Below, piece after piece: positions 44,768 to 61,296 of a DNA stretch of 64,000 nucleotides (its first letter is position 1; each line of letters starts with the position of its first letter). Position numbers and translations under genes: made by a program. The notes under the pieces are model-generated. The model was not told the DNA's origin. It worked only from the letters and a program-made list of their open reading frames with translations, and made no database searches. This DNA comes from Dehalococcoidia bacterium. Lineage in GTDB: Bacteria > Chloroflexota > Dehalococcoidia > Lucifugimonadales > JADFKI01. The stretch is from positions 330,803 to 394,802 of the forward strand of contig CBDESO010000012.1 in NCBI GenBank assembly GCA_965242555.1, given 5' to 3'.

Positions 44768-44879
44768 CCGCCCATAGCGCCACTACCCCCCAAGTGATAT
44801 GGTATGCGAACACAATGCTGATACGCCGCCCAACCAGATATTCGGATATGAGGACAATCGGATACGAGGTTCAACGCCC

Positions 44880-46061
44880 ATGACCCTGCCGCAGTTCCCC
44901 GCAGAGCGCCGCGAAAAGCGCGAATTCCTGCTCGCCGCCGTAGAATCCGTGCGTGATGTAGTAGCCGCCCACGCCGACGAATCCGAGCGCATCGGAACGC
45001 TCGCGCAGCCCTCCGTTGACGCCATCCGCCAAGCCGGCCTATTCGCCCTAAAGCTCCCCCAAGCGCTAGGCGGCGCCGAGGCCGACCCCGTAACCCAATT
45101 CGAAGTCATAGAGGCGCTATCCTACATTGACGCCTCCGCCGGCTGGTGCCTTATGATTGGCGCAACCGCCGTAGGCCAGCCCGGCGCCTACGCCGGCGAC
45201 GCCGCCATAGCCGAGATGTTCCCCAACGGCTACATCCCGCTCGGCGCTACCTCAACCGCCCCTATGGGCAGCGCCAAGCGCGTGGACGGCGGCTACCTGC
45301 TCACCGGCAGATGGCCCTTCGCCAGCGGCGTCCGCCACGCCGAGTGGATGTCCGCCGGCGCCGCCATACCCGCTCCCAACCCTAACGATCCCCCGATTTC
45401 GCTCGCCCTAGCCTACCCCACCGCCAAAGCGCAAATCCACGACAACTGGCATGTCTTCGGCTTGCAAGGCACCGGCAGCAACGACATATCGGTAGAGAAC
45501 ATATTCGTCCCCGACGCCTTCACCTGGGACTCCCTCGCCTTCAAGCCCAAGCGCGGCGGCGGCCTCTACCGCATGGGCAGGCCCGGCTTCGTAGCAAACG
45601 AACACCCCGCATTCGCCCTCGGCGTAGCCCATCGCGCCCTAGACGAAGTCCTAGCGAGCGCCCCCGCCAAACGCCGAGGCCGCCCGCCCACCTCCGTCGC
45701 CGACCGCGGCGCATTCCGCCTAGCCATAGGCGAATGCGACCTCCGCCTGCGCGCCGCCCGCCTGCTATCCCACCAAATCTTCGAGCGCGCCTACGCCGTC
45801 GCCTGCGCCGGCCGCATCCCCCCCGCATCAATGCAAGCCGAAATGCGCGCCGCATCCGCCTTCGCCACCCAAGTCGGCGTGGACATAGTCACAACCGCCT
45901 TCCGCTACTCCGGCGGCGAGGCGCTCTACCACCCCCACATCCTCCAGCGCTGCCTAAAAAACATCAACGCCGCCGCCCAGCACCTAATGGCCGGCGACAT
46001 CGGCATAGAACACCACGGCGCCGCCCTCCTAACCGACGGCGACGTCAACCCAATGGGCTAG
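44880..46061 (+). CDS. Acyl-CoA dehydrogenase-fold protein (type-2/flavin-dependent oxygenase-like)
   Basis: ATG at 44880 follows GAGG. ..LPQALGGAEADPVTQFEVIEALSYIDASAGWCLMIGA.. and ..WPFASGVRHAEW.. are typical of the ACAD type-2 subfamily. Confidence 0.75.
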   Translation: MTLPQFPAERREKREFLLAAVESVRDVVAAHADESERIGTLAQPSVDAIRQAGLFALKLPQALGGAEADPVTQFEVIEALSYIDASAGWCLMIGATAVGQPGAYAGDAAIAEMFPNGYIPLGATSTAPMGSAKRVDGGYLLTGRWPFASGVRHAEWMSAGAAIPAPNPNDPPISLALAYPTAKAQIHDNWHVFGLQGTGSNDISVENIFVPDAFTWDSLAFKPKRGGGLYRMGRPGFVANEHPAFALGVAHRALDEVLASAPAKRRGRPPTSVADRGAFRLAIGECDLRLRAARLLSHQIFERAYAVACAGRIPPASMQAEMRAASAFATQVGVDIVTTAFRYSGGEALYHPHILQRCLKNINAAAQHLMAGDIGIEHHGAALLTDGDVNPMG

Positions 46062-46791
46062 GAGGCTGCCCCTTGCGATATATCGTTATCCCAAAAGCGT
46101 CTATATGCCGTTTCAGCGGCGGATGCTTGACGCCTTCATATGCCTGCAAATCGCACATCTGCGGTATCGGCAAATCCTCAAGATCAAGCGCCAGCAACCC
46201 CAAGCGCCGGGAATCCGCGATCCCCAGCGTAACCAAATCAATATCCGACCGCTTGGTTGCCCTGCCGGTGGCCCGCGACCCGAACAGCCTGACCTCAGTC
46301 AGTTCGGGATACCCCGCGAACACATCCCTGAGCATCCGCAGCGTTGCGTCAGACAAGAAAGGAGCGGGCATTGTCATTGCGCCATAACCTCCGGCAAGTA
46401 GCCGCTGATAAAGCGCGTCCAATATCGCCAGATAGCGGGAGTGGATACTGCGTATGATCACATCAAACCGCTCAAAATCATATGCGCGCGCCATCAGATT
46501 GCGGTCGGCAAACATCGCCATCCAAGCCTCGCCGTCATCAATAAGCCTGGCGCTGAATGCTTGGCGTATAACCCCGCGCGGCGTTATCGTTGCGAGTATA
46601 GCCCCGTCGTACTCCAGCCTATCGTTCAGCAGGTTGCTCGCTACATCAAAGGCGAACCTGAATCGCCGCATAACGCCCTCGCGCTCCAGTTGGTTCAGCG
46701 GTTCAACGCCGTCCTCCAGCGCATCACGCAGCAGCGAATACGCGCGGCTGAAGTTCGCAAAGCGATACCGCCATCGTATCTCTTCGCTCAT
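46045..46791 (-). CDS. Single-polypeptide fusion of an HI0074-type HEPN (nucleotidyltransferase substrate-binding) domain and a minimal nucleotidyltransferase (MNT) domain
   Basis: ATG at 46791 (MSEEIRWRYRF). The N-terminal half has ..RFRFAFDVASNLLN..RNLMARAYDFE... The C-terminal half has ..LFGSRATGRATKRSDIDLVTLG... The track ORF start at 47145 overlaps the ABC ATPase and is rejected. The 3' end overlaps the convergent ACAD-like gene by 17 nt. Confidence 0.75.
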   Translation of the reverse strand: MSEEIRWRYRFANFSRAYSLLRDALEDGVEPLNQLEREGVMRRFRFAFDVASNLLNDRLEYDGAILATITPRGVIRQAFSARLIDDGEAWMAMFADRNLMARAYDFERFDVIIRSIHSRYLAILDALYQRLLAGGYGAMTMPAPFLSDATLRMLRDVFAGYPELTEVRLFGSRATGRATKRSDIDLVTLGIADSRRLGLLALDLEDLPIPQMCDLQAYEGVKHPPLKRHIDAFGITIYRKGQPPSPLG

Positions 46792-46841: not shown

Positions 46842-47555
46842 CTAATCCCGATACCGCAGCCCCACCTCCGCCTGCTCCAGCAGCCGCCCGTCGCGGATCT
46901 CTTTCACCTCGTCCGCCATTGAGAGCAGCGTGGAATCGTGCGTTGCGGAGACTACGCTGATGCCCTGCTTGACCACCATCTCCTTGAACAGCCCGAATAT
47001 GGCGTGCGCGTTGTTGGAATCCAGCTCGCCGGTGGGTTCGTCCGCCAGGATGAGCGAGGGGCGTATGACGATGGCGCGCGCTATGGCTACGCGCTGCTGC
47101 TCGCCGCCCGATAGTTCGTATGGGCGATGGCGCGAGCGCGTCCACAAGCCCACGATGTCCAGCGCCTCCCGCGTGCGCTCCGCCCTATCCCGCGCGCCCA
47201 CCCCGCTGATTCGCAGCGGCAATTCCACATTCTCAAACGCCGACAGCAGCGGCAGCAGTCCGAAAGACTGGAATATGAACCCAATCCGGTGGCGGCGCAG
47301 CTCGGTGAGTTCCTGCTCGCTCATCCGCGCCAAATCCTGCTCTTCAAACAGCACCTGCCCGCCGCTCGGCTTGTCCAAGCCCGCCATTATGTTCAGCAGC
47401 GACGTCTTGCCCGATCCCGACCTGCCCACCACCGCGATGAACTGCCCCGGGAACACATTCAGGTTCACCCCCCGCAGCGCGTTGACCTCCTCCGAACCGA
47501 GGTTGTATGTGCGGAAGACGTCCACCGCGGCGAGAAGTCTCTGGATTCTGCTCAA
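46842..47555 (-). CDS. ABC transporter ATP-binding protein (MacB/LolD type)
   Basis: TTG start follows GGAGG. Walker A GRSGSGKTS, Q-loop, signature LSGGEQQRVAIARA and Walker B LILADEPTGELD. Confidence 0.9.
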   Translation of the reverse strand: MSRIQRLLAAVDVFRTYNLGSEEVNALRGVNLNVFPGQFIAVVGRSGSGKTSLLNIMAGLDKPSGGQVLFEEQDLARMSEQELTELRRHRIGFIFQSFGLLPLLSAFENVELPLRISGVGARDRAERTREALDIVGLWTRSRHRPYELSGGEQQRVAIARAIVIRPSLILADEPTGELDSNNAHAIFGLFKEMVVKQGISVVSATHDSTLLSMADEVKEIRDGRLLEQAEVGLRYRD

Positions 47556-47670
47556 TTGGATTGCACCTCCGGCATACGGGGCAGTTGGCGATAGGCGATT
47601 AAGCCTGCGCGTATTCTGTGAAAGCGTTGCGGCTACGGGTTGCGTATGGCTATCTGATACGGCTAAACGA

Positions 47671-48564
47671 CTACAAACTATCGTCCGGCGTCAGGGTAAC
47701 CCTGCCGTCTTCGGCGTCTATGCGGGCGCGAGCGCCTATTTTGAGGCGATCTATGATGTCGCGGGGTATCTGCACTCTGCCGCTGCCGTCCACCAGGATG
47801 AACTCTTCCAAAGGCTGGTCGGTTTCGGCGGCGCCCGACAGCCGCTGATAGGTAACCCGCCGCCGCACTTCGGTAGCCATCTTGCCATCCCGTATCATCA
47901 CCACGCGCCCCACCTTGTAGGCTATGTCCGGGTCGTGCGTGACGATGAGTATGGTCGTGTTCAACTCGCGGTTGATTGTGCCGAACAGATCCAGGATTTC
48001 GGCGGCGGTGGCGTCGTCCAGCTCGCCGGTGGGTTCGTCCGCCAGCAGCAGCGGCGGATGGTTGGCGAGCGCCACCGCTATGGCGACGCGCTGCTGCTCG
48101 CCGCCGCTGAGCTTGTCCGGCGTATGATCCATGCGATGGCTAAGCCCCACGAGTTCCAGCAGATCCTCGGCGCGGCGGCGGCGGGCGGCGGGCGATGTGA
48201 ATGTCAGCATCATCGGCAGCGCCACATTCTCCACGGCGGTCAAATACGGGAACATATTGCGGCTCGTCTGCTGCCAGATAAATCCCACTTCGTCGCGGCG
48301 ATAGAGTTCCACGTCGTTGGGCGTCATCCGCAGCAGATCCTTATCGCCCACGGTTACGCGCCCGGCGGAGGGCGAATCGTAGCCCGCGAGTATGTTCAGC
48401 AATGTGCTTTTGCCGCTGCCGCTCGCGCCCACTATCGCCACCACCTCGCTGCGCCGCACATCCAGGTCAAGCCCGCGCAGCGCCACCACCTCAAGGTCGG
48501 CTATCTTGTATATCTTAAACAGATCCTCGCAGACGATATACGCCTCTGTGTCCGTGTATGTCAA
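47671..48564 (-). CDS. ABC transporter ATP-binding protein (MacB/LolD type) with a C-terminal SpoVT/AbrB-like domain
   Basis: Walker A GASGSGKSTLL, LSGGEQQRVAIAVA and LLLADEPTGELD. The last ~45 aa (GRVQIPRDIIDRLKIGARARIDAEDGRVTLTP) fit the swapped-hairpin AbrB/MazE pattern. Confidence 0.88.
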   Translation of the reverse strand: MTYTDTEAYIVCEDLFKIYKIADLEVVALRGLDLDVRRSEVVAIVGASGSGKSTLLNILAGYDSPSAGRVTVGDKDLLRMTPNDVELYRRDEVGFIWQQTSRNMFPYLTAVENVALPMMLTFTSPAARRRRAEDLLELVGLSHRMDHTPDKLSGGEQQRVAIAVALANHPPLLLADEPTGELDDATAAEILDLFGTINRELNTTILIVTHDPDIAYKVGRVVMIRDGKMATEVRRRVTYQRLSGAAETDQPLEEFILVDGSGRVQIPRDIIDRLKIGARARIDAEDGRVTLTPDDSL

Positions 48565-48654
48565 TTAACGCTCCCCGGCGTTAGCCTATTTCCCGGTGAT
48601 AGCCTATTCCCCGCCGTTAGCCTTAGCCCAGCCGCGCGGCGGCGCTTTGCTCGC

Positions 48655-51600
48655 TTAGAGTTCGCCCAGCCGCAGGATGCGCTGCAGCGATATGCGGCGT
48701 ATGAACCATATCATCCCCAGTATAATCAGGGTGAACACCAACACCATAAAGCCGTAGGTTATGGCGAGCGTTCCCCAGTCTATTTCCAGCACAAACGGCG
48801 GCAGGACTTGCGCACCGCGGTCGTTGTGGCTCAGAAACGGCATAATTATCGCGCCCAGCCGCCTGCCCATTTCGGCGCCCAGCGCCATCCCCGCCGCGAT
48901 AACCAGCGCCTGCTCCAGCCACACCAGCGTCACCAGCTGCCGCATAGAAAAGCCCACGGTTCGCATCAGCCCGAACTGCATCTCGCGCTCCCTGAAAGAC
49001 ACATAAGAGTGTACCAGAAAGCCCAGGCAGCTCAGTATCAGCACAGCGCCGAATGCCATAAACAGCAGCGCGCGCCAGCCCGCATGCACAAGCGGGTCAA
49101 CCGAGGCGTCCTGCAGCTCCTCCACGCGGTCGTGAATCCGGCGGCTTGCGAATGGCAAGGCGTCCTCGCGCATCCCGCTCACGAACTCTTCCCGCTCGCC
49201 GCCGTTGGCGTTGGCGCTCAGCCATATCTCGTTGGGCTTTACCTCAGCGGATGTGGACTCCAGGTTGGTGTAGCGGATGACGGAGTCGATGTCCGAAATC
49301 AGGTATGGCTTGGTAACCGTGTCAAGCGTGGGGAAGTATTCAAAAGTGTCTATGATGCGGATGGGGACGCGATGGCCCGCCACCGAAACCATAAACTCTT
49401 CGCCGACGCTGTGGCCGGTGTGGCTGAGAAACAGGCTGCTCGCAAGCACGGGCAGCGGGTTGGCGGCGGGCCCATGATATATGCCGCGCCCGGTGAGCGG
49501 CGGGCCCTCCGACCAGATGAACTGCGCGACGTCCTCAGTTGCGTTTGCCGCCGCATCGCCGCCGTTGACGGGCTGCAGGATGTCGGTTATGGACTCGCGC
49601 GCGCCGCGCAGAACGCTCCAAGCCTCCACCGAACCGAAGTCTTCGATGGTCGTCTTTGTGTTGGATGCGTCTCTCACCCATATCTCGTCAATGGCGATAT
49701 TGCCCGCGCGCAGCCTGCCGCGCGAGTTGGTGTCGTGAATGGACAGCGAAACCAGCGTCAGCGGTTTCGCCGGCTGCAGCGGCGCGAAACGCCGCCTGAA
49801 ACTGCTGCCCCGCGCCAAGCCGCGCTCAAGCGTAATCCAATCCCCGTCGCCGCCAAGCCTGCCTACCACATAGGTGTAGTATCGGTTGTTGGCGTCTTTG
49901 ATACGCATAGTTACCGCGATGCTCTCGCGCGGGCGGTCGGGCTTGACGCGCATCCCGATGGCGAAAGCGTTATCGGGCAGCTCAATGCCCAGCGGCGGCG
50001 CGGGATGCTCCAGCCGCGTCAGCAGATCCGCCATAGGCTTATCCGAAAAGTCCCCCCGAAACCAGCCGATGCGCCGCATGCTCTCGCCGTCAACGCCGAC
50101 CATCGTGTAGCTTTCGCCCAGCAGCTTAGACAAGTCCGTGCCAAACGCCTTGATTACGGGCGACGCCTCATCTACAACCGGCAGCGCCTCGTATGTATCC
50201 ACAAGCGGCACGCTGCGCCCGCGATTGTTGAGCGCAAGCCCCTCTACCCGAATGTCCGCGCCCGTGGAGTAGCGCGCCTGCTCTTGAAAGCTGCGCTCCA
50301 GCGTGCCGCCGAAACTCGCCGCGAATATGCCCAAGCCCGCCATAAGTATCAGCAGCAAAGACATCCGCGCGTAGTGCGTGGGATTGCGCGCCATCTGCCA
50401 CATTCCCATAGCGAAACCAACCGGCGCCCTGCGCGCAAACGCGCCGAACCCCAAGAACGCCAACCCCAGCGGCAGGGGCAAGAACACGCTCGCATCCGCG
50501 GATACGCTGAGTACAAGAACGCCCCCGATAATCCCCGGCGCTACGGCAATGTCCCCGCTGCGAAACGCCAGGAACTCCAGGATGGGCGCGTTGAACGGGC
50601 TTATCACAAGCGCGGCTACTATCGCCGTCTGCGCCGCCAATCCCGCAAATCGCAGACGGCCATCGCCCGCGCGCTCAGTTGCCCAGTACAGCGCCGCAAG
50701 GCCGGCTATCGCCGCCACCGCCGCCAAGCGCAACTGCCAGCCCGCGTCATCCGCGCCGCCGAACAAGACGCTCGCCGCCTGCGCGCCCGCCGCAACGCCC
50801 ACTATCAGGTGCATCAGGTTGGGCGAATCGCCGCTTATGAACCGGATGGACAGCGGGAACAGCCGCAGCAGCGCCACCGCGAAAGCCACCAGTATCAGCG
50901 CCGGAACGGCGAGCAGCGCCTGGTTCACCGCAACGCCCCCGAACAATCCGGTAGCCACCACGGACCCTTGATCATAGAGCTGCCGAAACAGGAATATGCT
51001 GACGACCAGCAGCATCACATCAAGGTAGAATCGTTGAAAGAACGGCTGCCCGGTCGGGCGCGCCGACTGCTGTCTATGGCGCGTAACGCCGATGCGGGAC
51101 GCGCGCACCGCCGGTATGAGCAGCGCGGCGAAACTGCACAGCCCGCCCAGCGCGCTCATCATATACGCGCCGCCCGTGATGAACACGCGCAGCGGCTCCC
51201 CGCCGCTCAGCCCGCTGAACGCGGGCGTGTATCCCAACAAACTGATGATGGCGGAGGCGAGCAGCGGCGCGGCTAACGCGGCTATCAGCGATATGGTCGC
51301 GCCCTCTATTATGAACACCGCGAGGATCTGCCCCGAACTCGCGCCCCGGCTGCGTAGCAGCGCAAGCTCGCCGCGCTGCTGCTCTACCAGCAAGGAGGAC
51401 AGCGTTATCACATAGTACAGGATGACAACCGCTATCAGAACCATCACCACGAACATCGGTATCTTGCTGAAGAACAGCCGCCTATCGTACTCCGCGAGCG
51501 TGGAATCAAGATCGGTAATCTGCCGGTAGCCGTAGAGATTTGATGCAAGCCGCGAGCGCATCGTGCGGATTTGCAGGTAGGTTATCGTGGTATTGCCCGC

Positions 51601-52416
51601 GTTCAGCCGCTCGCGGTCGACGTCCAAGTGCCATGCGTATGAGGCGTCCATATCGGTGAACGCCGCGCCCAGTATGTTGAAAAACATCTGCTCCGACACA
51701 TAGAACGGCAATGTGCGAAACGATCCTGATGTGACCGTGCGAAACAGCGCATCGTCCTGATACCAGAACTCGGCGTCAGGATCGTTCTTGACGAACAGCC
51801 CGCTGATAACCACGCTCGCGTAAGGGATGCGGTCGCGCCAGTATGGAACGGCGGACAGCCTATCGCCCACGCCCACGCCGAACAGCTCGGCGGCGTCCGC
51901 GGGAACGATCGCCTCCAGCGCCAGCGGAGCGCCGCCGTCCGCAAGCGCCCGCTCGTTGGGAAAGCGGCCGCCCTCAAGCAGCGTGATATGATCCGCAATG
52001 CGCGGGTTGAACGAAAAGAATGAGCGCGCGTCGCCATCGCTTGCGAACTCTTCCTCGCCCGGATACGCCAGGTAGAATGTGGCGGATTTGGCGCTGCGCT
52101 GCACATCCTTGAACAGCCAGCCAAGCCGCCCCTCATATTCGGTTCGCGTAGCGTTGGCGACCTTGCGATACTCGTCCACGGTGGTAGGCCCCCGCTCGGC
52201 TTTGAGCAGGATGTCCAGGTCGAGGTCGTCCACGCCGGCGAGCGTGTTTTTGAGCGCAAGCTCGCGCAGCGAGTCGAAGTATATGACCGTCCCCGCCATA
52301 ACCGTGGACGAAAGCAGAACGCCGATGATGACCGTGGACAGCAGCCGCCAATGAGACAGGCTGCGCTTTGCCACCATAGGCCACGCCGCTATTAGCGCTG
52401 ATATTGCTTGACGCAT
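48655..52416 (-). CDS. Giant FtsX/MacB-type ABC permease (1,253 aa; two FtsX modules, two large extracytoplasmic domains)
   Basis: N-terminal TM, a ~300-aa loop, then FtsX helices (..LLRSRGASSGQILAVFIIEG..) and extra TMs. A ~420-aa second loop precedes the C-terminal FtsX module (..GLMRTVGFSMRQLVTLVWLEQ..). Confidence 0.85.
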   Translation of the reverse strand: MRQAISALIAAWPMVAKRSLSHWRLLSTVIIGVLLSSTVMAGTVIYFDSLRELALKNTLAGVDDLDLDILLKAERGPTTVDEYRKVANATRTEYEGRLGWLFKDVQRSAKSATFYLAYPGEEEFASDGDARSFFSFNPRIADHITLLEGGRFPNERALADGGAPLALEAIVPADAAELFGVGVGDRLSAVPYWRDRIPYASVVISGLFVKNDPDAEFWYQDDALFRTVTSGSFRTLPFYVSEQMFFNILGAAFTDMDASYAWHLDVDRERLNAGNTTITYLQIRTMRSRLASNLYGYRQITDLDSTLAEYDRRLFFSKIPMFVVMVLIAVVILYYVITLSSLLVEQQRGELALLRSRGASSGQILAVFIIEGATISLIAALAAPLLASAIISLLGYTPAFSGLSGGEPLRVFITGGAYMMSALGGLCSFAALLIPAVRASRIGVTRHRQQSARPTGQPFFQRFYLDVMLLVVSIFLFRQLYDQGSVVATGLFGGVAVNQALLAVPALILVAFAVALLRLFPLSIRFISGDSPNLMHLIVGVAAGAQAASVLFGGADDAGWQLRLAAVAAIAGLAALYWATERAGDGRLRFAGLAAQTAIVAALVISPFNAPILEFLAFRSGDIAVAPGIIGGVLVLSVSADASVFLPLPLGLAFLGFGAFARRAPVGFAMGMWQMARNPTHYARMSLLLILMAGLGIFAASFGGTLERSFQEQARYSTGADIRVEGLALNNRGRSVPLVDTYEALPVVDEASPVIKAFGTDLSKLLGESYTMVGVDGESMRRIGWFRGDFSDKPMADLLTRLEHPAPPLGIELPDNAFAIGMRVKPDRPRESIAVTMRIKDANNRYYTYVVGRLGGDGDWITLERGLARGSSFRRRFAPLQPAKPLTLVSLSIHDTNSRGRLRAGNIAIDEIWVRDASNTKTTIEDFGSVEAWSVLRGARESITDILQPVNGGDAAANATEDVAQFIWSEGPPLTGRGIYHGPAANPLPVLASSLFLSHTGHSVGEEFMVSVAGHRVPIRIIDTFEYFPTLDTVTKPYLISDIDSVIRYTNLESTSAEVKPNEIWLSANANGGEREEFVSGMREDALPFASRRIHDRVEELQDASVDPLVHAGWRALLFMAFGAVLILSCLGFLVHSYVSFREREMQFGLMRTVGFSMRQLVTLVWLEQALVIAAGMALGAEMGRRLGAIIMPFLSHNDRGAQVLPPFVLEIDWGTLAITYGFMVLVFTLIILGMIWFIRRISLQRILRLGEL

Positions 52417-52539
52417 TGCGAATTACTCAGGTTGCTCAGGCTGTTCGGTTAGTTCATTGGCTTGTTTAACGGGGTTAGGGTTAGACGGGTTAGGGTTGGC
52501 AGGGTTGGCCGCATCGGTTTGGCGGCGGCGGGCGCTTGG

Positions 52540-55500
52540 CTACTCCAGCCGCGATATGGCGTGAAAGTCCAGGCGGCGCATCCCGCGCGTGAGCCGGTAT
52601 ATCGCCAGCGCGAATACGCTTATCAGAACCGCGTAGAGCGGCAGCAGAAAGCGCAGGTCGGTTTCCAGTATGAACGGCGGTATGACCTCCCTGCCGTTTT
52701 CGGTTACCGCAACCGATGATACCATAAGGTCGCTCATAACCCACCCCGCGCCCGTGCCAAGCCCCACGCCTATCGCCACGATGATCATATGCTCCAGCGC
52801 GAGAAGTCCCGCCATTTGGCGCGGCGACAGCCCGACCGACTGCAAAAAGCCCATTTCGCTGCGGCTGCGGTTGGCGAAAGCAAGCAGGTATGTCAGGTAG
52901 CCAAGCCCCGCCGTGAACACGATGAGCGCCATCGCAAGCAGCGACATCGCTTGCCAGCCGGCGGTTATGAGCGGATCCAGGCGCACCTGCTCCAGCCGCG
53001 CCTCGCGGTCTATCACAAGATCCCTGCCCACCATCCGCGTTACCACCTGCCGCACCGAATCGCCCGCGCCGGGCGCTTTCTGTATGAACATCTCGTTTGG
53101 CGTGGCGACCACCGCCGGGCTCAGTATGTTGATGTGGCGGATGAGCGTTTCCAAGTCGGCTAGGATAAAGCCCGCGCCGCGCGGGTCAAGCGTGGGGAAC
53201 AAGTCCACCGAATCGCGCACTACGATTGGCACAAATCGCCCCATCAGTTCCACAATCAGCGAATCGCCCACGCGCGCCCCCGACGCCGCCAGGAAAGAAC
53301 CGCTCGCCACCACCGGCACGGGCCCCCCGCTTGGACTTCTGTATATCCCCCTAAGCCCGTTATCGGTGTCTTTGCCGAATGTGAACAGCCCGGCGGTTTC
53401 CCCGCGTATCGCGTCTTCCCGCGTGAGCGCCAGCGAATCCGACGATAGCGTGGATGTGGCAAGCGGCAGCCACTGAGAGCGCGTGTCCTCAAAGTCTTCC
53501 AGGGCGCTGACTGACCCGTCCGCGCTGATGGCGTGTATCTCGTCCAGCAGGATGCCGCCGGCGGTTCCCGCGGGCCCAAAGACGGGTTCGTATATCTGTA
53601 TGGACGCCAGCTGCAGCGGCCTTTTGAGCCATTGCGGCAACTCCAGCGTCTGCCGATGCCACTCAGGCGGCCCCATGCTGCCCAGCGAAATCGTTTCAAG
53701 CACGCCGTCCGCGTCCTGCAAGACTACCCACATGAACATATTAGGATAATTATCGGCGGGCTTTACCCATACGCCGAGATGCGTGGCGTCCTCCGGCAAA
53801 GACAGCGGTTCGCTCACGCTTAGCGGGTTTAGCGCGCGCATCACTTCGGGCAGCGAGTTGCGCGAAAAGTCGTCCCGATACCACGAGTGGTAGTGAAAAT
53901 CGTCCGCCTCGACCGCGAGCGCCTCGAATTGGCGGCCGCTGTAGTTCGCGCCCAGCGATCCGCTTTCGCGGAACGACAGCGTCACCGACGTTACGCCCGG
54001 CAGGGTAGAGTAGCGCTCTTTCAGCCCGCCCACGCTGCGCGAAACAAAGCCGGGGATGTTGGACACGCGCATATCGGTGGCAACGTCGTACAGGATGCGC
54101 TCTTCGTAGCTGCGGTTTAGCGTGCCGCCCACGGTGGTGGCAAGCACGGCGAGCCCGGTGACCATCACCAGCAGCAGCACAAGCCAACTGTACTGCAGCG
54201 GGTTGCGCGCCATATGCCACAGACTTAGCGATACCCACACGGGCGCCACCCGCGAGAGCAGCGCAAAGCCCACATACAGCGCCTGCATCGCAATCAGCAG
54301 CGCGAAGGCGATAGTGGGCAGGAACGCCAATGTTCCCGACGTGGGCGTGTGAGTCAGCAGCAGCGCGCCAATCAGCGCTGATTGCGCGGCGAATGCGTAG
54401 AACTTGGAGCGCCGCCGCTCAGCGCGCTGAGTAGCCCAGTACGCCAGCCCGGCGCCCAGCGTTAGCGCGAGCGGCGGCAGAATGCCCATAATATCGCCGA
54501 GCCTAAGCCCGTCCATCAGCAGCGTCAGCGCGAGCGCGCCGCCCGTAGCCCAGGCGTACAGGTGGATGAGCGCGGGCGATTCGCCGCTGATAAAGCGCAC
54601 GAACAGCGGGAAGAACCGCATAAACACCAGCGCCACCAGCGTCAGCAGCAGCACGGGCGCGAACAGCAGCGCCTCGTTTATCTCTATGCCGCTGAACAGC
54701 CCGCCCGATACTATCTGCCCCCGCGCGTTCAATTCCCAGAACACCAGCGCCCCGATTGCCAGAACCATCATATCAAGATAGTAGCGCTGGAAGAACGGCA
54801 CTATGGGCGGGCGCGACGAGCGGAGTTTGTGTATGACTAGGCTTGTTCGCGCGCCAATCACGCCCGGCGCTACGAACATCGCAAGCCCAAGCGCGCCCAC
54901 TCCCGCGGACACCATAAACGGCGTCCAGCGCCAGTTGACGGGCAGAAATTCCCCGCCGGTTATCTCGGTGAAATAGGGCAGCATCCCCGACGCCGCGATG
55001 ACGCCCATAGCCAGCAGCGGCGCGATTATCGCCGCGACCGCCGCGAGTATCAGCCCCTCTATCGCGTACAGCCGCACAAGCTGCGCCATGCTCACGCCCC
55101 GGCTGCGTAGCAGCGCCACATCGTCTTCGCGGCTTTGCACAAGGTAGGACACCATCATCGCCAGGTAGTACAGCACGGTGATGACCATAATCGTGAGCAG
55201 CAGCAGCAGCGGTATGCTGGTGAAAAAGCTGCGCCGCTCAAAGCGGTCAAGCAGCGATTGGATGCCCGTGAACACCGCGGATCCCTGCATCAGCGCCGCC
55301 AAGCCGTTTTCCATATTGTCTATGCGTTGGCTGAGTTCCTCAGGCCGAATTCGCTTTAGCGGCTCTTTGTCAACAAATACGAACCACGACGACGAAACTA
55401 GGCTGCCCGGATACGCCTTGCCCACGCTGTCCAACAGCGCTTGCTTGGTAACGAAAAGCGCGATTGGCGGCTCTTCCGGATCCACCTCTATGCCCACATC

Positions 55501-56187
55501 CGGGATTTCGTCAAGCGGCGCGGGCTCTAAGAACACATTGGCGTTCTGCTGCCAATAGAGTTCGTCCGGATCCGTCGGGTCCATTATGCCAACGATTTCG
55601 GCGGTAACCGAAACCGCCGAACCCAGCGATGGCTTAAGCTCAAGCAGCTCGCCCACTTCCAGGCTAAACACATTCGCGGTTGACGCGCCCACCACCGCCT
55701 CTACATACGGACCTTCGGGCGTCTGCGTAACCGTATCCGACGCCATCCGCCCGGCCACAAAGTCAACATGATGTTCCACATTGGACAGATACTGAAAGTA
55801 GCCGCGCGAAACCAGCTCAGTGCTTGCGTTGGCGAGCGGCCGCCACTCTGTCCCTACAAGCATCGTAGAGCCTTTGAGGTATCGCTCGCGCCCCACATAG
55901 AAATCGGAGATGTTGTCGTCTATGAGGCGGTCGATCTGCGCGTCGGTGGTTATGAGGGTTTCTTCTTGCAGCGGCACATTGGGCGCGAATGCGAAGATGT
56001 TTAGGAAGAGGATGGACGAGCGGTCTATGGATGTGTTCAGCGTCAGGCGCGCCAGCGAGTTCAGATAGACGGGCGCGCCCGCCACAAGCGTGGACGCTAT
56101 CAGGATGCCCGCGAATATGCTCAGGAGCAACTTCCAATCGGAAGTCAGCCGCCTGAATATAAAGCCCAATGTGGAGAATGAACGCAT
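52540..56187 (-). CDS. Giant FtsX/MacB-type ABC permease (1,215 aa), paralogue of 48655..52416
   Basis: Same architecture (..LLRSRGVSMAQLVRLYAIEG.. and ..GFLQSVGLSPRQMAGLLALEH..). ATG at 56187. Confidence 0.85.
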   Translation of the reverse strand: MRSFSTLGFIFRRLTSDWKLLLSIFAGILIASTLVAGAPVYLNSLARLTLNTSIDRSSILFLNIFAFAPNVPLQEETLITTDAQIDRLIDDNISDFYVGRERYLKGSTMLVGTEWRPLANASTELVSRGYFQYLSNVEHHVDFVAGRMASDTVTQTPEGPYVEAVVGASTANVFSLEVGELLELKPSLGSAVSVTAEIVGIMDPTDPDELYWQQNANVFLEPAPLDEIPDVGIEVDPEEPPIALFVTKQALLDSVGKAYPGSLVSSSWFVFVDKEPLKRIRPEELSQRIDNMENGLAALMQGSAVFTGIQSLLDRFERRSFFTSIPLLLLLTIMVITVLYYLAMMVSYLVQSREDDVALLRSRGVSMAQLVRLYAIEGLILAAVAAIIAPLLAMGVIAASGMLPYFTEITGGEFLPVNWRWTPFMVSAGVGALGLAMFVAPGVIGARTSLVIHKLRSSRPPIVPFFQRYYLDMMVLAIGALVFWELNARGQIVSGGLFSGIEINEALLFAPVLLLTLVALVFMRFFPLFVRFISGESPALIHLYAWATGGALALTLLMDGLRLGDIMGILPPLALTLGAGLAYWATQRAERRRSKFYAFAAQSALIGALLLTHTPTSGTLAFLPTIAFALLIAMQALYVGFALLSRVAPVWVSLSLWHMARNPLQYSWLVLLLVMVTGLAVLATTVGGTLNRSYEERILYDVATDMRVSNIPGFVSRSVGGLKERYSTLPGVTSVTLSFRESGSLGANYSGRQFEALAVEADDFHYHSWYRDDFSRNSLPEVMRALNPLSVSEPLSLPEDATHLGVWVKPADNYPNMFMWVVLQDADGVLETISLGSMGPPEWHRQTLELPQWLKRPLQLASIQIYEPVFGPAGTAGGILLDEIHAISADGSVSALEDFEDTRSQWLPLATSTLSSDSLALTREDAIRGETAGLFTFGKDTDNGLRGIYRSPSGGPVPVVASGSFLAASGARVGDSLIVELMGRFVPIVVRDSVDLFPTLDPRGAGFILADLETLIRHINILSPAVVATPNEMFIQKAPGAGDSVRQVVTRMVGRDLVIDREARLEQVRLDPLITAGWQAMSLLAMALIVFTAGLGYLTYLLAFANRSRSEMGFLQSVGLSPRQMAGLLALEHMIIVAIGVGLGTGAGWVMSDLMVSSVAVTENGREVIPPFILETDLRFLLPLYAVLISVFALAIYRLTRGMRRLDFHAISRLE

Positions 56188-56403
56188 AGATTCGCGCGCC
56201 GGCGCTGCGCCGGACTAGCCCCCGTGCAAAGTATAGCGCCGCTGCCGCCCGCGCCTGACGATTAGCGCATAGCGGCGGCGCGTCAGGACGCCGGCGGATT
56301 GGCGTTGCCGCCATAGTAGCACATTATCGCAAAGCGCGTATCGCGCCCGGCAAAATGCGCCGGACGCGATGCGATATTTAAGCGATGTCAAGCGGCGTTG
56401 CGC

Positions 56404-57528
56404 TTACAGCCCGATGCCGTCCGCCACGGTTTCCAGATGGTAATCGGTATCGCCGAAAGCGAGCTCGGCGGCTTTGGCGCGGCGCGAGTAGAGCTGCATG
56501 TTATGCTCTTTGGTAAAGCCGATGGCGCCGTGGCACTGATGTCCAAGCGCGCAGATGCGGCGATAGGCGTCGCTCACCCACGCCTTAGCCATTGCCACTT
56601 CTTGCGCCGCCGCCTCGCCCTCGGACAGCAGCCACGCCGCCTGATAGGTGATGTAGCGCGAGCCCTCGACGTCGGTAGCCATATTCGCGCAGTGATGCTG
56701 TATCGCCTGAAAAGAGCCGATGGGCCTGCCGAACTGCGTGCGCTGCTTGGCGTACTCCACGGTCATATCCAGCACCTGCTCCGCGCCGCCGACCATTTCG
56801 GCGCACTTGCCCACCGCGCCCCACGCCAGCGCTTTCTCTATCGTGTCCCAGCCCTTGTTCACATCGCCAAGCGCGGCGGACGCGGGCAGGGATACGTTGT
56901 CCAGGACAACCTCCGACTGCCTATCGGACGCGATGGTCTTGAGCAGCGTTTGACTCACGCCCGCGGCGTCGCTGGGAACCAGGAACAGCGTGATGTCGCG
57001 CTCGCCCTCGCCGGTTCGCGCCGCGACCACATAGGTATCGGCGACATGCGCGTTGGGGACGAAAAGCTTTGTGCCGTTGAGCGTCCAGCCCTCGCCGCTT
57101 TGCGTTGCGGTGGTTTCCACGCCCGCCGCGTCCCAGCGCGCGCTCGGCTCGGTCAGCGCCAGCGTAACGATGAGCTGCCCCTCGCCTATCTGCGGCAGCA
57201 GTTCCTGTTTCTGCGCCTCGGAGCCGGCGTCCATAATCGCCATCCCGCCCATCACAATCGTGGAAAACAGAGGGCCCGGCAGCAGCGCGCGCCCGGTCTC
57301 TTCCAGCAGCACGGACAGATCCAGGAAACTAAGCCCCACGCCGCCATACTGCTCCGGGAAAATCAGCCCCAGCCAGCCCTGCTCGGCGATCTTCTGCCAC
57401 ATCTCAGTCGTGTAGCCGCGCTCATCCTCTTCCATAGCGCGCACATAGGTATCCGGGCATTCCGCCTGCAAAAATTCGCGGGCGGAGTTTTTGAGCATCT
57501 GCTGCGTTTCGTTCAGTCCAAGGTCCAT
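56404..57528 (-). CDS. Acyl-CoA dehydrogenase
   Basis: 374 aa; ..FGRPIGSFQAIQHHCANM.. and ..GAIGFTKEHNMQLYSRRAKAAE... RBS GGAGGA. Confidence 0.88.
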   Translation of the reverse strand: MDLGLNETQQMLKNSAREFLQAECPDTYVRAMEEDERGYTTEMWQKIAEQGWLGLIFPEQYGGVGLSFLDLSVLLEETGRALLPGPLFSTIVMGGMAIMDAGSEAQKQELLPQIGEGQLIVTLALTEPSARWDAAGVETTATQSGEGWTLNGTKLFVPNAHVADTYVVAARTGEGERDITLFLVPSDAAGVSQTLLKTIASDRQSEVVLDNVSLPASAALGDVNKGWDTIEKALAWGAVGKCAEMVGGAEQVLDMTVEYAKQRTQFGRPIGSFQAIQHHCANMATDVEGSRYITYQAAWLLSEGEAAAQEVAMAKAWVSDAYRRICALGHQCHGAIGFTKEHNMQLYSRRAKAAELAFGDTDYHLETVADGIGL

Positions 57529-57639
57529 TGCGTTGTTCCTCCGATTTGTGTTGTGTGCGTAATTTGGCGTAGGCTGTCTTTGTTATAATATCTTACGAAA
57601 CCATTTCTGATTTCTATCCCACGACGAGAGTCAAAAGTT

Positions 57640-57921
57640 ATGGCTAAGCCTACAATTCATTATCAAGCCAACCAATACCTTGCCGGGGAATTGTCTCACG
57701 AAAACCTACACAACTGGGTTTTTGATAGGCTGGGCTATTACTTTCGCCCCGACCTAGACGGGACGCCTGATTCTGACCTGGCTAGTTTGTTGGTCGGGCT
57801 ATTCTGCGATTGCGACCTCCAGATTGATATGCTGGGAGAGTATGATGAGGAAGAATTTCGGCAATCCCTAACCGAGTTCATTGCTAAGGCAGAACCGCAA
57901 CTGTCTCACGCGATAGGATAA
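57640..57921 (+). CDS. Small acidic hypothetical protein (paralogue A)
   Basis: 93 aa in a low-GC patch, with its own TATAAT-like -10 at about 57585. Shares L..W(V)(F/Y)DR(L/I).YYF..(D/E)LDG..D.(D/E)LAS.LVGL with the next ORF. Confidence 0.55.
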   Translation: MAKPTIHYQANQYLAGELSHENLHNWVFDRLGYYFRPDLDGTPDSDLASLLVGLFCDCDLQIDMLGEYDEEEFRQSLTEFIAKAEPQLSHAIG

Positions 57922-57969
57922 GCGGCGCAACAAAGATTCACTCCATAATGTACATAAGGGTTAACATCA

Positions 57970-58239
57970 ATGTCCGAACCCACACTCCGCGAACAAGCCC
58001 ACAGGTATATTGACGGCAACTTGTCATATTCGGAACTTCATCGGTGGGTATATGACAGGATTGACTACTACTTTGCGGACGAACTCGACGGCTACGCGGA
58101 TGGCGAACTCGCCTCCCAACTTGTTGGCTTAATGGCCGAGTATGACCTTGACGCCGATATTTTCGGCAACGCCGCCAAAGCCGAGGCCGTCTTTCGCCAA
58201 GCGGTCACAGAGTACCTGTACGCTCGCCAACTATCGTGA
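57970..58239 (+). CDS. Small acidic hypothetical protein (paralogue B)
   Basis: 89 aa, a tandem paralogue of 57640..57921. Confidence 0.55.
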   Translation: MSEPTLREQAHRYIDGNLSYSELHRWVYDRIDYYFADELDGYADGELASQLVGLMAEYDLDADIFGNAAKAEAVFRQAVTEYLYARQLS

Positions 58240-58332
58240 ACAAACTCCTTACTTAAGCGTCGTTTCTGACGTCCTAAATTTCGTAGCGTCTAGGTAAAGA
58301 CGCAGCCTTCTCATTCGCAGCTCGCAGGCGGG

Positions 58333-59511
58333 TTAGCGCGGCAGCCCCAGCCCGCGCGTGGCAATGACATTGCGCTGTATCTCGGACGTTCCCGCCGCCA
58401 CCGTGCCGCCGTGCGAGCGCATCCACCCGTTCTCGATGCGCCCCCGCAGCGGCGCCCACTTGGACTCCGGCTCCAGCTGCCCGTACAGCCCCATCACCTG
58501 CATCCCAAGGCTGTACAGGCGTATCATCATCTCAGTGCCGTATGCCTTTGTGATGGACGCCTCGCGGTTGGGGATCATATCCTGGCTTTGCATCCACGCC
58601 ACGTTGTAGCACATCAGGCGGCAGGACTCGATTTGCACTGCCATATCCGCCAGCCGGCGGCGTATGGTGACGTCCTCCGCCAGCGGCTTGCTGTTGCGGT
58701 CGTTCTGCTTGCAGAAGTCGGCTATGTCTTCCAGCAGGCGCTTTGCCCGCGCCGGCCGGTCGACGCCGGAGCGCTCGAAATCCAGCAGCGCCGCGCCCAC
58801 ATACCAGCCGCGGTTCAGCTCGCCCACAAGGTTCTTTTTGGGAACGCGCACATCCTCAAAGGTAACCAGCGCGCGGTTCGCGTTCCACATCATCGGTATC
58901 TTTTCCACGGTGACGCCGTCCTGCTTCAGTTCGGACAGCAGGAAACTGATGCCGCGATGCTTGGGCGCGTCCGGCTCGGTTCGCGCCAGCATAAACATCC
59001 AGTCGGCGCCTGAGTGCGCGCCGTTCCATATCTTAGATCCGTTGATGACGAAATCGTCGCCGTCCTCCACCGCCCGTGTGTTCAGCGACGCCAGATCCGA
59101 GCCTGAGTCGGGTTCGGAGTAGCCCTGCGCCCAGTCTATATCCGCCTGCGCGATGCGCGGCAGAAAGTACTGCTTTTGCTCCTCAGTGCCGTACAGCATC
59201 AGGATAGGCCCCACCATACGCACGCCCGAATCGCCCGCGGGAACGCCCCTGTACGCCATCTCTTCGTTGAAAATCATCTGTTGGATGTGCGGCGCCGCCT
59301 TGCCGCCGTACTCTTCGGGCCACGCCATAGTCAGCCAGCCGTTGGTGGCGAGTTTCTTCTTGAACTCGCGCACCAGCCCGGCATCCTCCGGCTCTTCGGC
59401 GTCCACCGCGCGCTCGCGCCAGTCCCAGGGCAGTTCGCTCTCAACGAACTCGCCCACCTCCCTGCGGAATGCGTTGTCCTGTTGGCTGAAGCGGAAGTCC
59501 ATTTGTTTCAC
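58333..59511 (-). CDS. Acyl-CoA dehydrogenase
   Basis: ..WAQGYSEPDSGSDLASLNTRAVEDGDDFVINGSKIW.. and C-terminal GTSEIQRNVIATRGLGLPR. Confidence 0.9.
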   Translation of the reverse strand: MKQMDFRFSQQDNAFRREVGEFVESELPWDWRERAVDAEEPEDAGLVREFKKKLATNGWLTMAWPEEYGGKAAPHIQQMIFNEEMAYRGVPAGDSGVRMVGPILMLYGTEEQKQYFLPRIAQADIDWAQGYSEPDSGSDLASLNTRAVEDGDDFVINGSKIWNGAHSGADWMFMLARTEPDAPKHRGISFLLSELKQDGVTVEKIPMMWNANRALVTFEDVRVPKKNLVGELNRGWYVGAALLDFERSGVDRPARAKRLLEDIADFCKQNDRNSKPLAEDVTIRRRLADMAVQIESCRLMCYNVAWMQSQDMIPNREASITKAYGTEMMIRLYSLGMQVMGLYGQLEPESKWAPLRGRIENGWMRSHGGTVAAGTSEIQRNVIATRGLGLPR

Positions 59512-59578
59512 CTCAGGTTGGCTTGCTGTTGTTTGGCGCAGGCATGCGATTAAACGCTTGCTTGCGGTTCTTGTATCG

Positions 59579-60007
59579 CTATGGGTATGCCCAATGCCGC
59601 GCAGTCAAGGCGCAGTTCCAGCGCCTCTTCACATACACTTCAGAGGGCAGCCCTCCCGTCATATTCGGCGCTATGCCCCCGAAAGATTTAAGCGGGGGAA
59701 TATCCTCTTGGCGCGGCAGCAGTTGCATGCTCCAGCCCCACACCCGCTTGGATCCGCCGTCCGCCGACGTCAGTTTTCTGCCGAACACGCTCACATTTCG
59801 CCCAAGCGCGTCTAGCGCTTGACGCGCCAAATCGCCCTCTAGGTGGCACTGCGCCTCGATCCCGCTCCAATCCTCAGTGACGATGAACTCGCCCTCGCCG
59901 CCGCAGGGCGCAAGACTGAGAGCGCCCGCGATAGAACCCACGGACTCGCGCCAACCCCCGCTCTCGCGGGCGGCAAGGCTATCTTTGCGCCCAAAGTCCG
60001 TGTCCAT
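59579..60007 (-). CDS. Hypothetical 142-aa protein between two ACAD paralogues
   Basis: ATG at 60007 follows AAGGTGA, and codon usage is like that of its neighbours. No confident family assignment, and the C-terminal ~15 aa look atypical. Confidence 0.4.
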   Translation of the reverse strand: MDTDFGRKDSLAARESGGWRESVGSIAGALSLAPCGGEGEFIVTEDWSGIEAQCHLEGDLARQALDALGRNVSVFGRKLTSADGGSKRVWGWSMQLLPRQEDIPPLKSFGGIAPNMTGGLPSEVYVKRRWNCALTARHWAYP

Positions 60008-60126
60008 TCGTTTCACCTTAATACTGATTGTTCGGCATACGGGTTGGCGATTTTCGGCTCCTTGTTGTTTTGTTTTGTCAGGATAGCCGCTGTGGCCCGT
60101 TTGGCACAGCGGCTATCCCCAACCTC

Positions 60127-61296
60127 CTACCTCGGCAAGCCCAGCCCGCGCGTGGCGATGATGTTGCGCTGGATCTCGGATGTCCCCGCCGCGATTGTGG
60201 CGGATACCGACGTCATGTAGCTCTGCTCTATGCGCCCCTGCAGCGGCGCGTACTTGGATCCCGGCTCCAGCTGCCCGTACAGCCCCAGGATTTCCATCCC
60301 CGCGCCCGCTACCGCCTGCTGCAACTCAGTGCCGAATGCCTTGCCCATAGACGATTCCTTGTTGGGAACAAGCCCCGCGCTCTGCATCCACGCTATCTGG
60401 TATGAGATGAGGCGGCTTATCTCGGTTCGCACGGTCAGGTCGGCGAGCTTGCGGCTGATTTTGGGGTCGTCTATGAGACGCCCTCCGTTGCGCTTGGTGT
60501 CTTTGCAGAACTGCACAAGCTCTTCCAGCGTGCGCTTTGTGCCGGCGGAGTACTCCACCCCGGAGCGCTCGAAGTCCAGCAGCGTCGCGCCCACATACCA
60601 ACCGCGGTTCAGCTCGCCCACTAGGTTGCGCTTGGGAACGCGCACATTGTCAAAGATGACCATATTGAAGCTGTGCTTGTTCGCCATATTGATGATGGGG
60701 CGAACCTCAACGCCGGGCTGCCGCATATCCGCCAGCAAGAAGCTGATGCCGCGATGCTTGGGCGCGTCCGGATCCGTGCGCGTCAACACCATCACATGGT
60801 CGGCGTGGTGCGCGTTGGACGTCCATATCTTAGTGCCGTTGATGACGAAATCGTCGCCGTCCTCAACCGCGCGCGTCTGCAGCGAGGCGAGGTCGGAGCC
60901 GGACTCGGGCTCGGAGTAGCCCTGACACCACTGCACTTCGCCGCGCGCTATGGGCGGCAGGTATTCGCGCTTTTGGTCTTCTGTGCCGTGTATCATCAGC
61001 GTGGGCGCGAGCATCTTTGTGCCGAACTGGTCCCTGCCCGGCGCGCGCTGATACGCCATCTCCTCGGCGAATATCAGCTGCATCATATGGGACGCGCCGT
61101 TGCCGCCGTACTCCTCGGGCCACGCCATCGTCAGCCAGCCCTTGTCCGCCAACTTCTTACGCATCTCCAGCGTGAAATCCCAGTCTTCGTCGTCCTCCTC
61201 AGAGCCGCCCGTCCAGCCGTCAGGCAGTTCCTTTTGCAGAAACTCTCGCAACTCGGCGCGGAAGTTCTCTTCTTCGGATGTGAACTTGAACTGCAT
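60127..61296 (-). CDS. Acyl-CoA dehydrogenase (close paralogue of 58333..59511)
   Basis: ..WCQGYSEPESGSDLASLQTRAVEDGDDFVINGTKIW.. and C-terminal GTSEIQRNIIATRGLGLPR. Confidence 0.9.
   Translation of the reverse strand: MQFKFTSEEENFRAELREFLQKELPDGWTGGSEEDDEDWDFTLEMRKKLADKGWLTMAWPEEYGGNGASHMMQLIFAEEMAYQRAPGRDQFGTKMLAPTLMIHGTEDQKREYLPPIARGEVQWCQGYSEPESGSDLASLQTRAVEDGDDFVINGTKIWTSNAHHADHVMVLTRTDPDAPKHRGISFLLADMRQPGVEVRPIINMANKHSFNMVIFDNVRVPKRNLVGELNRGWYVGATLLDFERSGVEYSAGTKRTLEELVQFCKDTKRNGGRLIDDPKISRKLADLTVRTEISRLISYQIAWMQSAGLVPNKESSMGKAFGTELQQAVAGAGMEILGLYGQLEPGSKYAPLQGRIEQSYMTSVSATIAAGTSEIQRNIIATRGLGLPR

Follow-up and report, generated by a model that had tools for sequence, protein, structure and literature searches.

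Among ATP-binding cassette (ABC) systems of type VII, the one closest to the gene cluster analyzed here is YbbAP, in which a single fused permease has two coupling helices, each occupied by a copy of the same ATPase, giving two nucleotide-binding domains (NBDs) per permease (PMC12646458). BceAB has the same ratio of two NBDs to one permease and co-occurs with a two-component system (PMC5985334). We analyzed a 64,000-nucleotide stretch of DNA (hereafter the window) from a marine SAR202/Dehalococcoidia bacterium (assembly GCA_965242555.1, contig CBDESO010000012.1, positions 330,803 to 394,802), which carries on its minus strand four neighboring genes for two paralogous giant permeases (permeases A and B) and two ATPases (ATPases 1 and 2).

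This cluster is an ordinary, intact member of a widespread family. It is structurally closest to, and would work like, YbbAP, the features of YbbAP that it lacks being the number of transmembrane (TM) helices, the single ATPase, a TesA-like partner gene beside the transporter, and detectable sequence homology to YbbP. With a confidence that only slightly exceeds our doubt, we explain it as a YbbP-type type VII system in which a heterodimeric NBD pair would serve both permeases and drive mechanotransmission. Neither this permease family nor a fused type VII system with two ATPases is described in the literature searched.

Permease A resembles YbbP in fold

The two permeases align from end to end with 29% identity. 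Each contains two FtsX modules (Pfam PF02687; scores of 57.3 and 59.7 bits, cut-off 25.5 bits), and all four modules were also recovered by a genome-wide search. As indicated by hydropathy and by an AlphaFold2 model of permease A, the chain starts with TM1, an outer domain of about 250–275 residues, three FtsX helices, and extra helices, and continues with a second half that consists of an outer domain of about 370–400 residues and three further FtsX helices. The model, which covers residues 16–1215 of permease A and was built with 127 aligned homologues, has a mean predicted local distance difference test score (pLDDT) of 82.9 and a predicted template modeling score (pTM) of 0.72. It contains 14 predicted TM helices, and a mixed α/β outer domain follows both TM1 and TM1′.

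When this model was compared with solved structures using Foldseek, the top match was Escherichia coli YbbP (9ge6/9ge7), aligned over the whole chain with an E value of 4.6e-16 and a sequence identity of about 11%. Further matches were MacB, BceB, LolC/E, YtrF, and HrtB. Foldseek also aligned the isolated periplasmic domain of LolE (5udf) with the outer domains of permease A at a probability of 1.0. Judging from the whole-chain alignment to YbbP, MacB, and LolCE, we infer that the first outer domain adopts a Porter/Sabre-like fold. Querying PDB sequences with both permeases (phmmer) did not find YbbP and returned only TM parts of LolC/E/F, PsdB, and FtsX, while Pfam searches with each outer domain alone gave nothing useful and did not match MacB_PCD; matches of the outer domains to DUF7388 and HSBP1 were far under the cut-offs and were disregarded.

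The preliminary description of this DNA, which was made from the letters and their open reading frames (ORFs), had proposed a YbbP-like double-FtsX layout, with the succession of TM1, outer domain, FtsX module, extra TM helices, second outer domain, and second FtsX module, in proteins larger than double-FtsX permeases of roughly 800–850 residues. The whole-length match to YbbP, the agreement between hydropathy and AlphaFold2, and the size of YbbP itself (799–804 residues in PDB 9ge6/9ge7) bear this out. YbbP, with 804 residues, has 10 TM helices and two linker helices, whereas the cluster permeases have 1215 and 1253 residues, and permease A is predicted to have 14 TM helices and six linker helices. 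The model attributes the excess over YbbP to a β-sandwich insert, four extra linker helices, and somewhat larger outer domains.

A β-sandwich insert in the second outer domain

The additional β-rich segment of permease A, which holds LSLPEDATHLGVWVKPAD...LQLASIQIYE...ILLDEIHAI, was folded alone and gave a domain of 11 strands without any helix (pLDDT 90.6, pTM 0.87). Its counterpart in permease B holds IELPDNAFAIGMRVKPD...LTLVSLSIHD...IAIDEIWV. Such an insert, lying outside the usual Porter/Sabre parts, had been suspected from the letters, and it is confirmed as an all-β domain that is kept in 126 of the 126 aligned homologues of both paralogues. In all permease-B-like homologues the insert region spans 180–223 residues; it is missing from the single-permease relatives of about 950 residues in other Chloroflexota classes.

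The nearest solved folds found by Foldseek are PLAT/LH2 β-sandwiches, which come from lipases, lipoxygenases, and a clostridial phospholipase. These matches are weak, with E values of 3e-4 to 1e-2, query-normalized template modeling scores of 0.29–0.37 where a match at fold level would call for about 0.5 or more, and root-mean-square deviations of 5–10 Å, and other generic β-sandwiches score alike. The insert is, as modeled, a β-sandwich with a faint PLAT-like resemblance.

A linker of two or six helices

Between its two halves the model of permease A has helices at model positions 450–632, six of them compared with two in YbbP. Clusters of Arg and Lys at every second linker junction, together with the hydropathy profile, fit 14 TM helices and the positive-inside rule. 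The linker of permease B in the window is similar in length to that of permease A. Among permease-B orthologues, the linker region measures 98 residues in 25 proteins of about 1116 residues and 203–227 residues otherwise, and the linker accounts for the whole length difference between these shorter proteins and those of about 1226–1253 residues. The permease-B orthologues of about 1116 residues and the relatives from other classes share with YbbP the combination of ten TM helices and two linker helices.

Two distinct ATPases, one with a putative AbrB-like tail

ATPases 1 and 2 are 42% identical, and both match Pfam ABC_tran (E 1.5e-33 and 5.5e-34, respectively). The Walker A motif, the signature, the Walker B motif with its glutamate, and the H-loop are intact in both proteins, the motifs being GASGSGKST, LSGGEQQR, LLLADEPTGELD, and THD in ATPase 1 and GRSGSGKTS, LSGGEQQR, LILADEPTGELD, and THD in ATPase 2. 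The best NCBIfam models for both are LolD, YbbA, FtsE, and MacB, at 187–225 bits. The LolD model gives 222–225 bits for the two proteins (224.9 for ATPase 1) against a cut-off of 307.75, and the FtsE model 186–205 bits against 264.85. Since all NCBIfam scores fall under the equivalog cut-offs, they indicate membership in the MacB/LolD/FtsE clade, not orthology.

ATPase 1 continues into a C-terminal tail of about 45 residues that is kept in all 12 of the ATPase-1 orthologues examined and that ATPase 2 lacks. Its consensus reads (E)[YF]xxVDxxGR[LV]Q[IL]P[RK]E...R[AV]R[VI]. Five of these 12 orthologous tails match Pfam MraZ (best E 7.5e-6) and five match MazE_antitoxin (best E 4.9e-4), while the tail in the window matches MazE_antitoxin with an E value of 0.028–0.071 and 13.5–14.8 bits, under the cut-off of 24.7 bits. 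A profile made from the tail alignment found no AbrB-type chain among PDB sequences, only spurious matches to SRP54. MraZ and MazE_antitoxin are AbrB-type swapped-hairpin families, whose half-barrels normally pair with a second copy. The tail is present also in the single-permease systems of other classes and so did not evolve to join permeases A and B.

The ATPase-2 homologues of four single-permease loci (L048, L049, L051, and L053) end in a motif of their own, GPLDxDLPDLxQxxEF, which is missing from ATPase 2 of the window and had no Pfam match when two verbatim query strings were searched. We considered this motif as the second half of an AbrB barrel, an assignment that the lack of a Pfam match leaves unsupported.

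Distribution and gene order

In the genome that contains the window, the FtsX-type systems comprise the permease pair and one other FtsX-family gene only. Within the class, the permease is present in 103 of 301 sampled genomes (about a third), nearly all of them with four high-scoring segment pairs, that is, two genes. Presence varies by family, from 17 of 17 genomes in some to 0 of 7 in others. A phmmer search with the second outer domain alone, run against 1.84 billion representative proteins, gave at least 532 matches at E ≤ 1e-3 in a database clustered at 50% identity; among the best 150 of the 532, full-length proteins (about 1065–1250 residues) hold this domain at the same position. The homologues number in the hundreds, have about 1110–1250 residues, and carry generic database names, such as SAR202 or Chloroflexi "FtsX-like permease" and, at JGI, names referring to lipoprotein release, which are likewise generic. 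The preliminary description had named, as an outcome that would refute its reading, a common and already characterized family of the same length and architecture. With at least 532 clusters and, in a scan of species genomes, 298 loci, the family is indeed common and of the same length and architecture, but it is not characterized.

Gene order was counted at the best 80 of the 298 loci, all of which come from metagenome-assembled genomes of Dehalococcoidia or SAR202. The complete order A, B, ATPase 1, ATPase 2 is present at 44 of the 80, and at five more it is cut by the end of the flanking sequence. Twelve loci sampled across the class and phylum likewise showed the order permease, permease-B-like gene, ATPase 1 with its tail, and ATPase 2. 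In a tree, permeases A and B fall into separate old clades, which points to an old duplication, and one genome holds two complete four-gene sets (L040 and L041, G356).

In some SAR202 genomes the genes for the giant permease are present three or four times (L098, L118, L124, and L075 in UBA1123; L112, L116, L117, and L121 in SRP308112_co1_387). These multicopy genomes and the occurrence of two full sets point to repeated duplication within the SAR202 lineage. At two loci with otherwise intact clusters (L069 and L097), permease A is split into two ORFs of 616 and 593 and of 711 and 559 residues, respectively, which could stem from a frameshift, from decay into a pseudogene, or from faulty assembly.

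As for the cluster in the window, the four genes are separated by gaps of 123, 90, and 115 nucleotides, and a terminator scan found no terminator-like site within any of the three. In the sampled loci of relatives the four genes often overlap by a few bases at their stop and start codons. These overlaps fit an operon. Two claims made from the letters, that the minus strand reads permease, permease, ATPase, ATPase with short gaps and that the two ATPases are distinct members of the MacB/LolD type, agree with the ORFs found at the exact coordinates, with the 42% identity of the ATPases, and with the co-conservation of the four genes.

Comparison with other type VII systems

YbbAP(-TesA) (9GE6/9GE7/9GE8) has in common with the cluster a single-chain permease with two FtsX modules, two Porter/Sabre-type outer domains on stalks, linker helices between the halves, and a separate ATPase of the LolD/MacB type. 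YbbP is nevertheless closest only by fold, as it has no sequence-detectable homology to the cluster permeases. The cluster further differs in its β-sandwich of about 175 residues, in its two paralogous permeases, and in its two ATPase genes, one of them with an AbrB-like tail. When all ORFs of 15 loci were clustered, only the four genes and antisense shadows recurred, so that no partner gene is conserved; specifically, no gene for a TesA-like hydrolase, the partner of YbbAP, is conserved beside the cluster at these loci, and such a partner may be encoded elsewhere.

BceB (7tcg, 8g3a) is also a fused 10-TM, double-FtsX permease and matched the model of permease A with an E value of 4e-7 over about 930 columns. 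It has a single large outer domain between TM7 and TM8 and works with one ATPase, whereas the cluster permeases have two outer domains. The latter, and the lack of an adjacent two-component system, led us to reject a Bce identity; no BceRS-type kinase or regulator was found in the neighborhood of the cluster or conserved at the loci. LolCDE and MacB, whose permeases are unfused, resemble the cluster in having an FtsX module, an outer domain of the Porter/Sabre type, and an NBD of the LolD/MacB kind; in LolCDE, too, the NBDs work with two different FtsX units. Unlike the cluster, LolCDE owes its asymmetry to its permeases, LolC and LolE, which work with a LolD homodimer. No gene for a MacA-like adaptor or a LolA-like partner is conserved beside the cluster. 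A Lol identity was rejected, as the lolCE models, with a cut-off of 362.45 bits, gave the two permeases 16.7 and 37.9, and an FtsEX identity was rejected given the 16.4 bits of FtsX_actino against a cut-off of 250, the FtsE score under its cut-off, and the fused architecture.

The single-permease clusters of other Chloroflexota classes have the order permease, ATPase 1 with its tail, and ATPase 2 in common with the window, and their ATPases are 51–57% identical to those of the window. Their permeases differ: they have 929–1029 residues and about 10 hydrophobic segments, and their second outer domain, of about 225 residues, is without the insert.

Which subunits would form a hetero-oligomer

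ATPases 1 and 2 are adjacent at every locus where either was seen complete. Where the permeases are divergently oriented (G372 and G228) or lie at separate loci (G292 and G300), both ATPases accompany the B-like gene and none the A-like gene, and in another genome (G348) about 40 kb separate both permeases from the two ATPase genes, which are again adjacent. In other Chloroflexota classes, seven sampled genomes have one permease of 929–1029 residues followed by an ATPase-1-like and an ATPase-2-like gene, the former aligning with ATPase 1 through the tail. A fused permease already holds both FtsX halves and, if it behaves as in the YbbA2:YbbP1 complex, takes two NBDs; by this analogy, each giant permease would be a complete pseudo-dimeric membrane unit on its own. 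Because the ATPases stay adjacent though the permeases are separated, and because both are kept with a single permease, the hetero-oligomer is most likely the ATPase pair, which would be common to two alternative permeases. An obligate assembly of two permeases and two ATPases had been suggested earlier. The part of this suggestion that stands is that the ATPases are distinct and the genes co-conserved, whereas the link between the two permeases is not invariant and single-permease relatives keep both ATPases.

Several points weigh against the reading of a shared ATPase pair within a YbbP-type machine. At 18 of the 80 loci permeases A and B have no ATPase within 6 kb, and at 11 there is a lone A-like gene, so the linkage is not absolute. 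AbrB-type domains normally pair with a second copy, which would be easier to reconcile with a homodimer of ATPase 1 than with a 1:1 heterodimer, and the adjacency of the ATPase genes could reflect co-regulation of two homodimeric motors. The linker helices L3–L5 are only moderately hydrophobic (Kyte–Doolittle values of 1.2–1.5), which makes the count of 14 TM helices a prediction. Finally, the function to which we commit ourselves, namely that ATP-driven mechanotransmission would extract or present a hydrophobic or envelope-anchored molecule, is read from analogy with LolCDE, MacB, and YbbAP.

With two permeases and two ATPases, the cluster could encode two independent transporters, each permease working with a homodimer of its own ATPase, as YbbAP and BceAB do with two copies of one ATPase, and the tails of ATPase 1, the only subunit to carry the half-barrel that normally needs a second copy, could then pair beneath the NBD dimer, as the regulatory domains of MetN or ModC do. 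We think this unlikely, as the single-permease relatives in other classes keep both ATPase types side by side, as separated permeases leave no ATPase with the A-like gene and both ATPases together, and as extra A-like permease genes occur alone without an ATPase of their own. The opposite arrangement would be an obligate larger machine in which A and B stand side by side, each loaded with NBDs and perhaps bridged by the ATPase-1 tails, given that a single AbrB-like half-domain per heterodimer would remain unpaired unless two complexes meet. Nearly every positive genome does retain both paralogues, the duplication is old, and the usual order A, B, 1, 2 is strongly conserved. We would give this arrangement a small chance only: the tail, occurring as it does in single-permease systems, did not arise as a bridge between A and B; A-like genes are found by themselves or at remote loci; some genomes with three or four permease copies have them in uneven numbers; and nothing of the kind is found among the solved type VII systems returned by the fold search or in the two studies of YbbAP and BceAB (PMC12646458, PMC5985334).

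Another possibility concerns what the machine does rather than how it is assembled. The cluster could be an FtsEX-like regulator whose outer domains, including the β-sandwich, would bind and activate a protein encoded elsewhere, either an extracellular hydrolase or one of the cell surface. Type VII includes pure signal transmitters (FtsEX-EnvC), YbbAP docks a hydrolase, the genome has only one other FtsX-family gene, and β-sandwich inserts are often protein-protein or glycan-binding modules; the fold matches of the insert are weak and generic. It is the least probable of the three alternatives, in that no hydrolase or partner gene recurs beside the cluster in the 15 loci, the FtsX_actino score lies far below its cut-off, and the architecture is YbbP-like, not FtsX-like. 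We retain the heterodimeric ATPase pair as the preferred reading.

Coordinates and genomic neighborhood

The coordinates of the four genes and of the features discussed above are listed in Table 1. The region upstream of permease A contains TTGACA and several TATAAT-like hexamers, and a promoter consensus scan reported no site in it; from its sequence, it is the likely promoter region of the cluster.

Table 1. Genes and features of the ABC cluster, numbered from the first nucleotide of the window
Feature	Residues	Nucleotides	Strand	Basis or description
Permease A	1215 (full length)	52540–56187	minus	ORF; two Pfam FtsX matches
First extracytoplasmic domain of permease A	about 57–307	55267–56019	minus	mixed α/β, AlphaFold2
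Linker of permease A	465–647	54247–54795	minus	six predicted helices, AlphaFold2 and hydropathy
Second extracytoplasmic domain of permease A	about 703–1071	52975–54081	minus	AlphaFold2 model
β-Sandwich insert of permease A	786–960	53308–53832	minus	predicted; folded alone
Permease B	1253 (full length)	48655–52416	minus	ORF; two Pfam FtsX matches
β-Sandwich insert of permease B	about 802–989	49450–50013	minus	predicted; aligns with permease A insert
ATPase 1	297 (full length)	47671–48564	minus	ORF, TTG start; ABC_tran
C-terminal tail of ATPase 1	about 250–297	47674–47817	minus	AbrB/MazE/MraZ-like; ortholog conservation
ATPase 2	237 (full length)	46842–47555	minus	ORF, TTG start; ABC_tran
Intergenic upstream region (216 nucleotides)		56188–56403	minus	candidate promoter region of the four-gene cluster

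The neighbors of the cluster in the window encode acyl-CoA dehydrogenases, a CoA-transferase, a rhomboid protease, and a HEPN/MNT-like ORF; no partner hydrolase, adaptor, two-component system, or substrate-related gene is encoded near it. Three of the acyl-CoA dehydrogenase genes follow one another upstream (56404–61296, minus strand) and a fourth lies at 44799–46061 on the plus strand, an arrangement that resembles a local expansion. Immediately downstream of ATPase 2, and likewise on the minus strand, a single ORF (46045–46791) combines a nucleotidyltransferase substrate-binding (HEPN-like) domain with a Polβ/MNT nucleotidyltransferase domain. Such domains usually form a two-gene toxin-antitoxin pair. 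This ORF is not kept beside the ABC cluster at the other loci among the 15.

A plus-strand ORF of 1448 residues (46930–51276), which faces the permease and ATPase genes on the opposite strand, was rejected as a gene; it is an antisense shadow arising in GC-rich coding DNA, and frames resembling it recur among relatives. Up to 46 kb, most of the window has an extreme GC skew of about −0.25 to −0.35; from there onward, the whole ABC cluster included, the skew falls to about −0.05.

Proposed mechanism and history

We propose that the cluster derives, by elaboration specific to its lineage, from the YbbP type of type VII ABC system, which is fused and pseudo-dimeric and works by mechanotransmission. 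Each permease would consist of two FtsX four-helix modules joined by linker helices, with two Porter/Sabre-type outer domains carried on stalk helices. The two ATPases would form one mixed NBD pair in which both sites are competent for catalysis. Of the two coupling helices of the asymmetric permease, the N-terminal one would receive one ATPase and the C-terminal one the other, and the same pair would serve permeases A and B as alternative partners. By analogy with the characterized relatives, the long TM1/TM2 stalk helices would pass the effect of ATP binding and hydrolysis in the cytoplasm on to the outer domains, which would either pull a hydrophobic or envelope-anchored molecule out of the membrane at its outer face or act on a partner located outside. 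No solute would be carried across the bilayer.

As for its history, on the simplest view the ancestral unit was one asymmetric fused permease with two different ATPases. In the Dehalococcoidia, the second outer domain would have gained the β-sandwich and the permease would have been duplicated into paralogues A and B; some branches, that of the window included, would have gained four more linker helices.

The β-sandwich insert and the linker of either two or six helices offer handles on how mechanotransmission machines gain outer functions. Should a fused permease indeed carry a heterodimer of the two ATPases, this would be a subunit arrangement that the literature searched does not describe for type VII. 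In the dark ocean, SAR202/Dehalococcoidia rank with the most abundant bacteria, and very little is known of how their envelope is built. A more far-reaching proposal combines an obligate ATPase heterodimer common to two 14-TM permeases, AbrB half-domains that may join the A- and B-complexes, and a lineage-specific PLAT-like sandwich that grips a lipid or envelope polymer into one undescribed asymmetric branch of type VII. We hold this combination to be improbable as a whole; were it true, these abundant bacteria of the deep ocean would have in the cluster an ATP-driven machine of their own for extracting lipid or envelope material.

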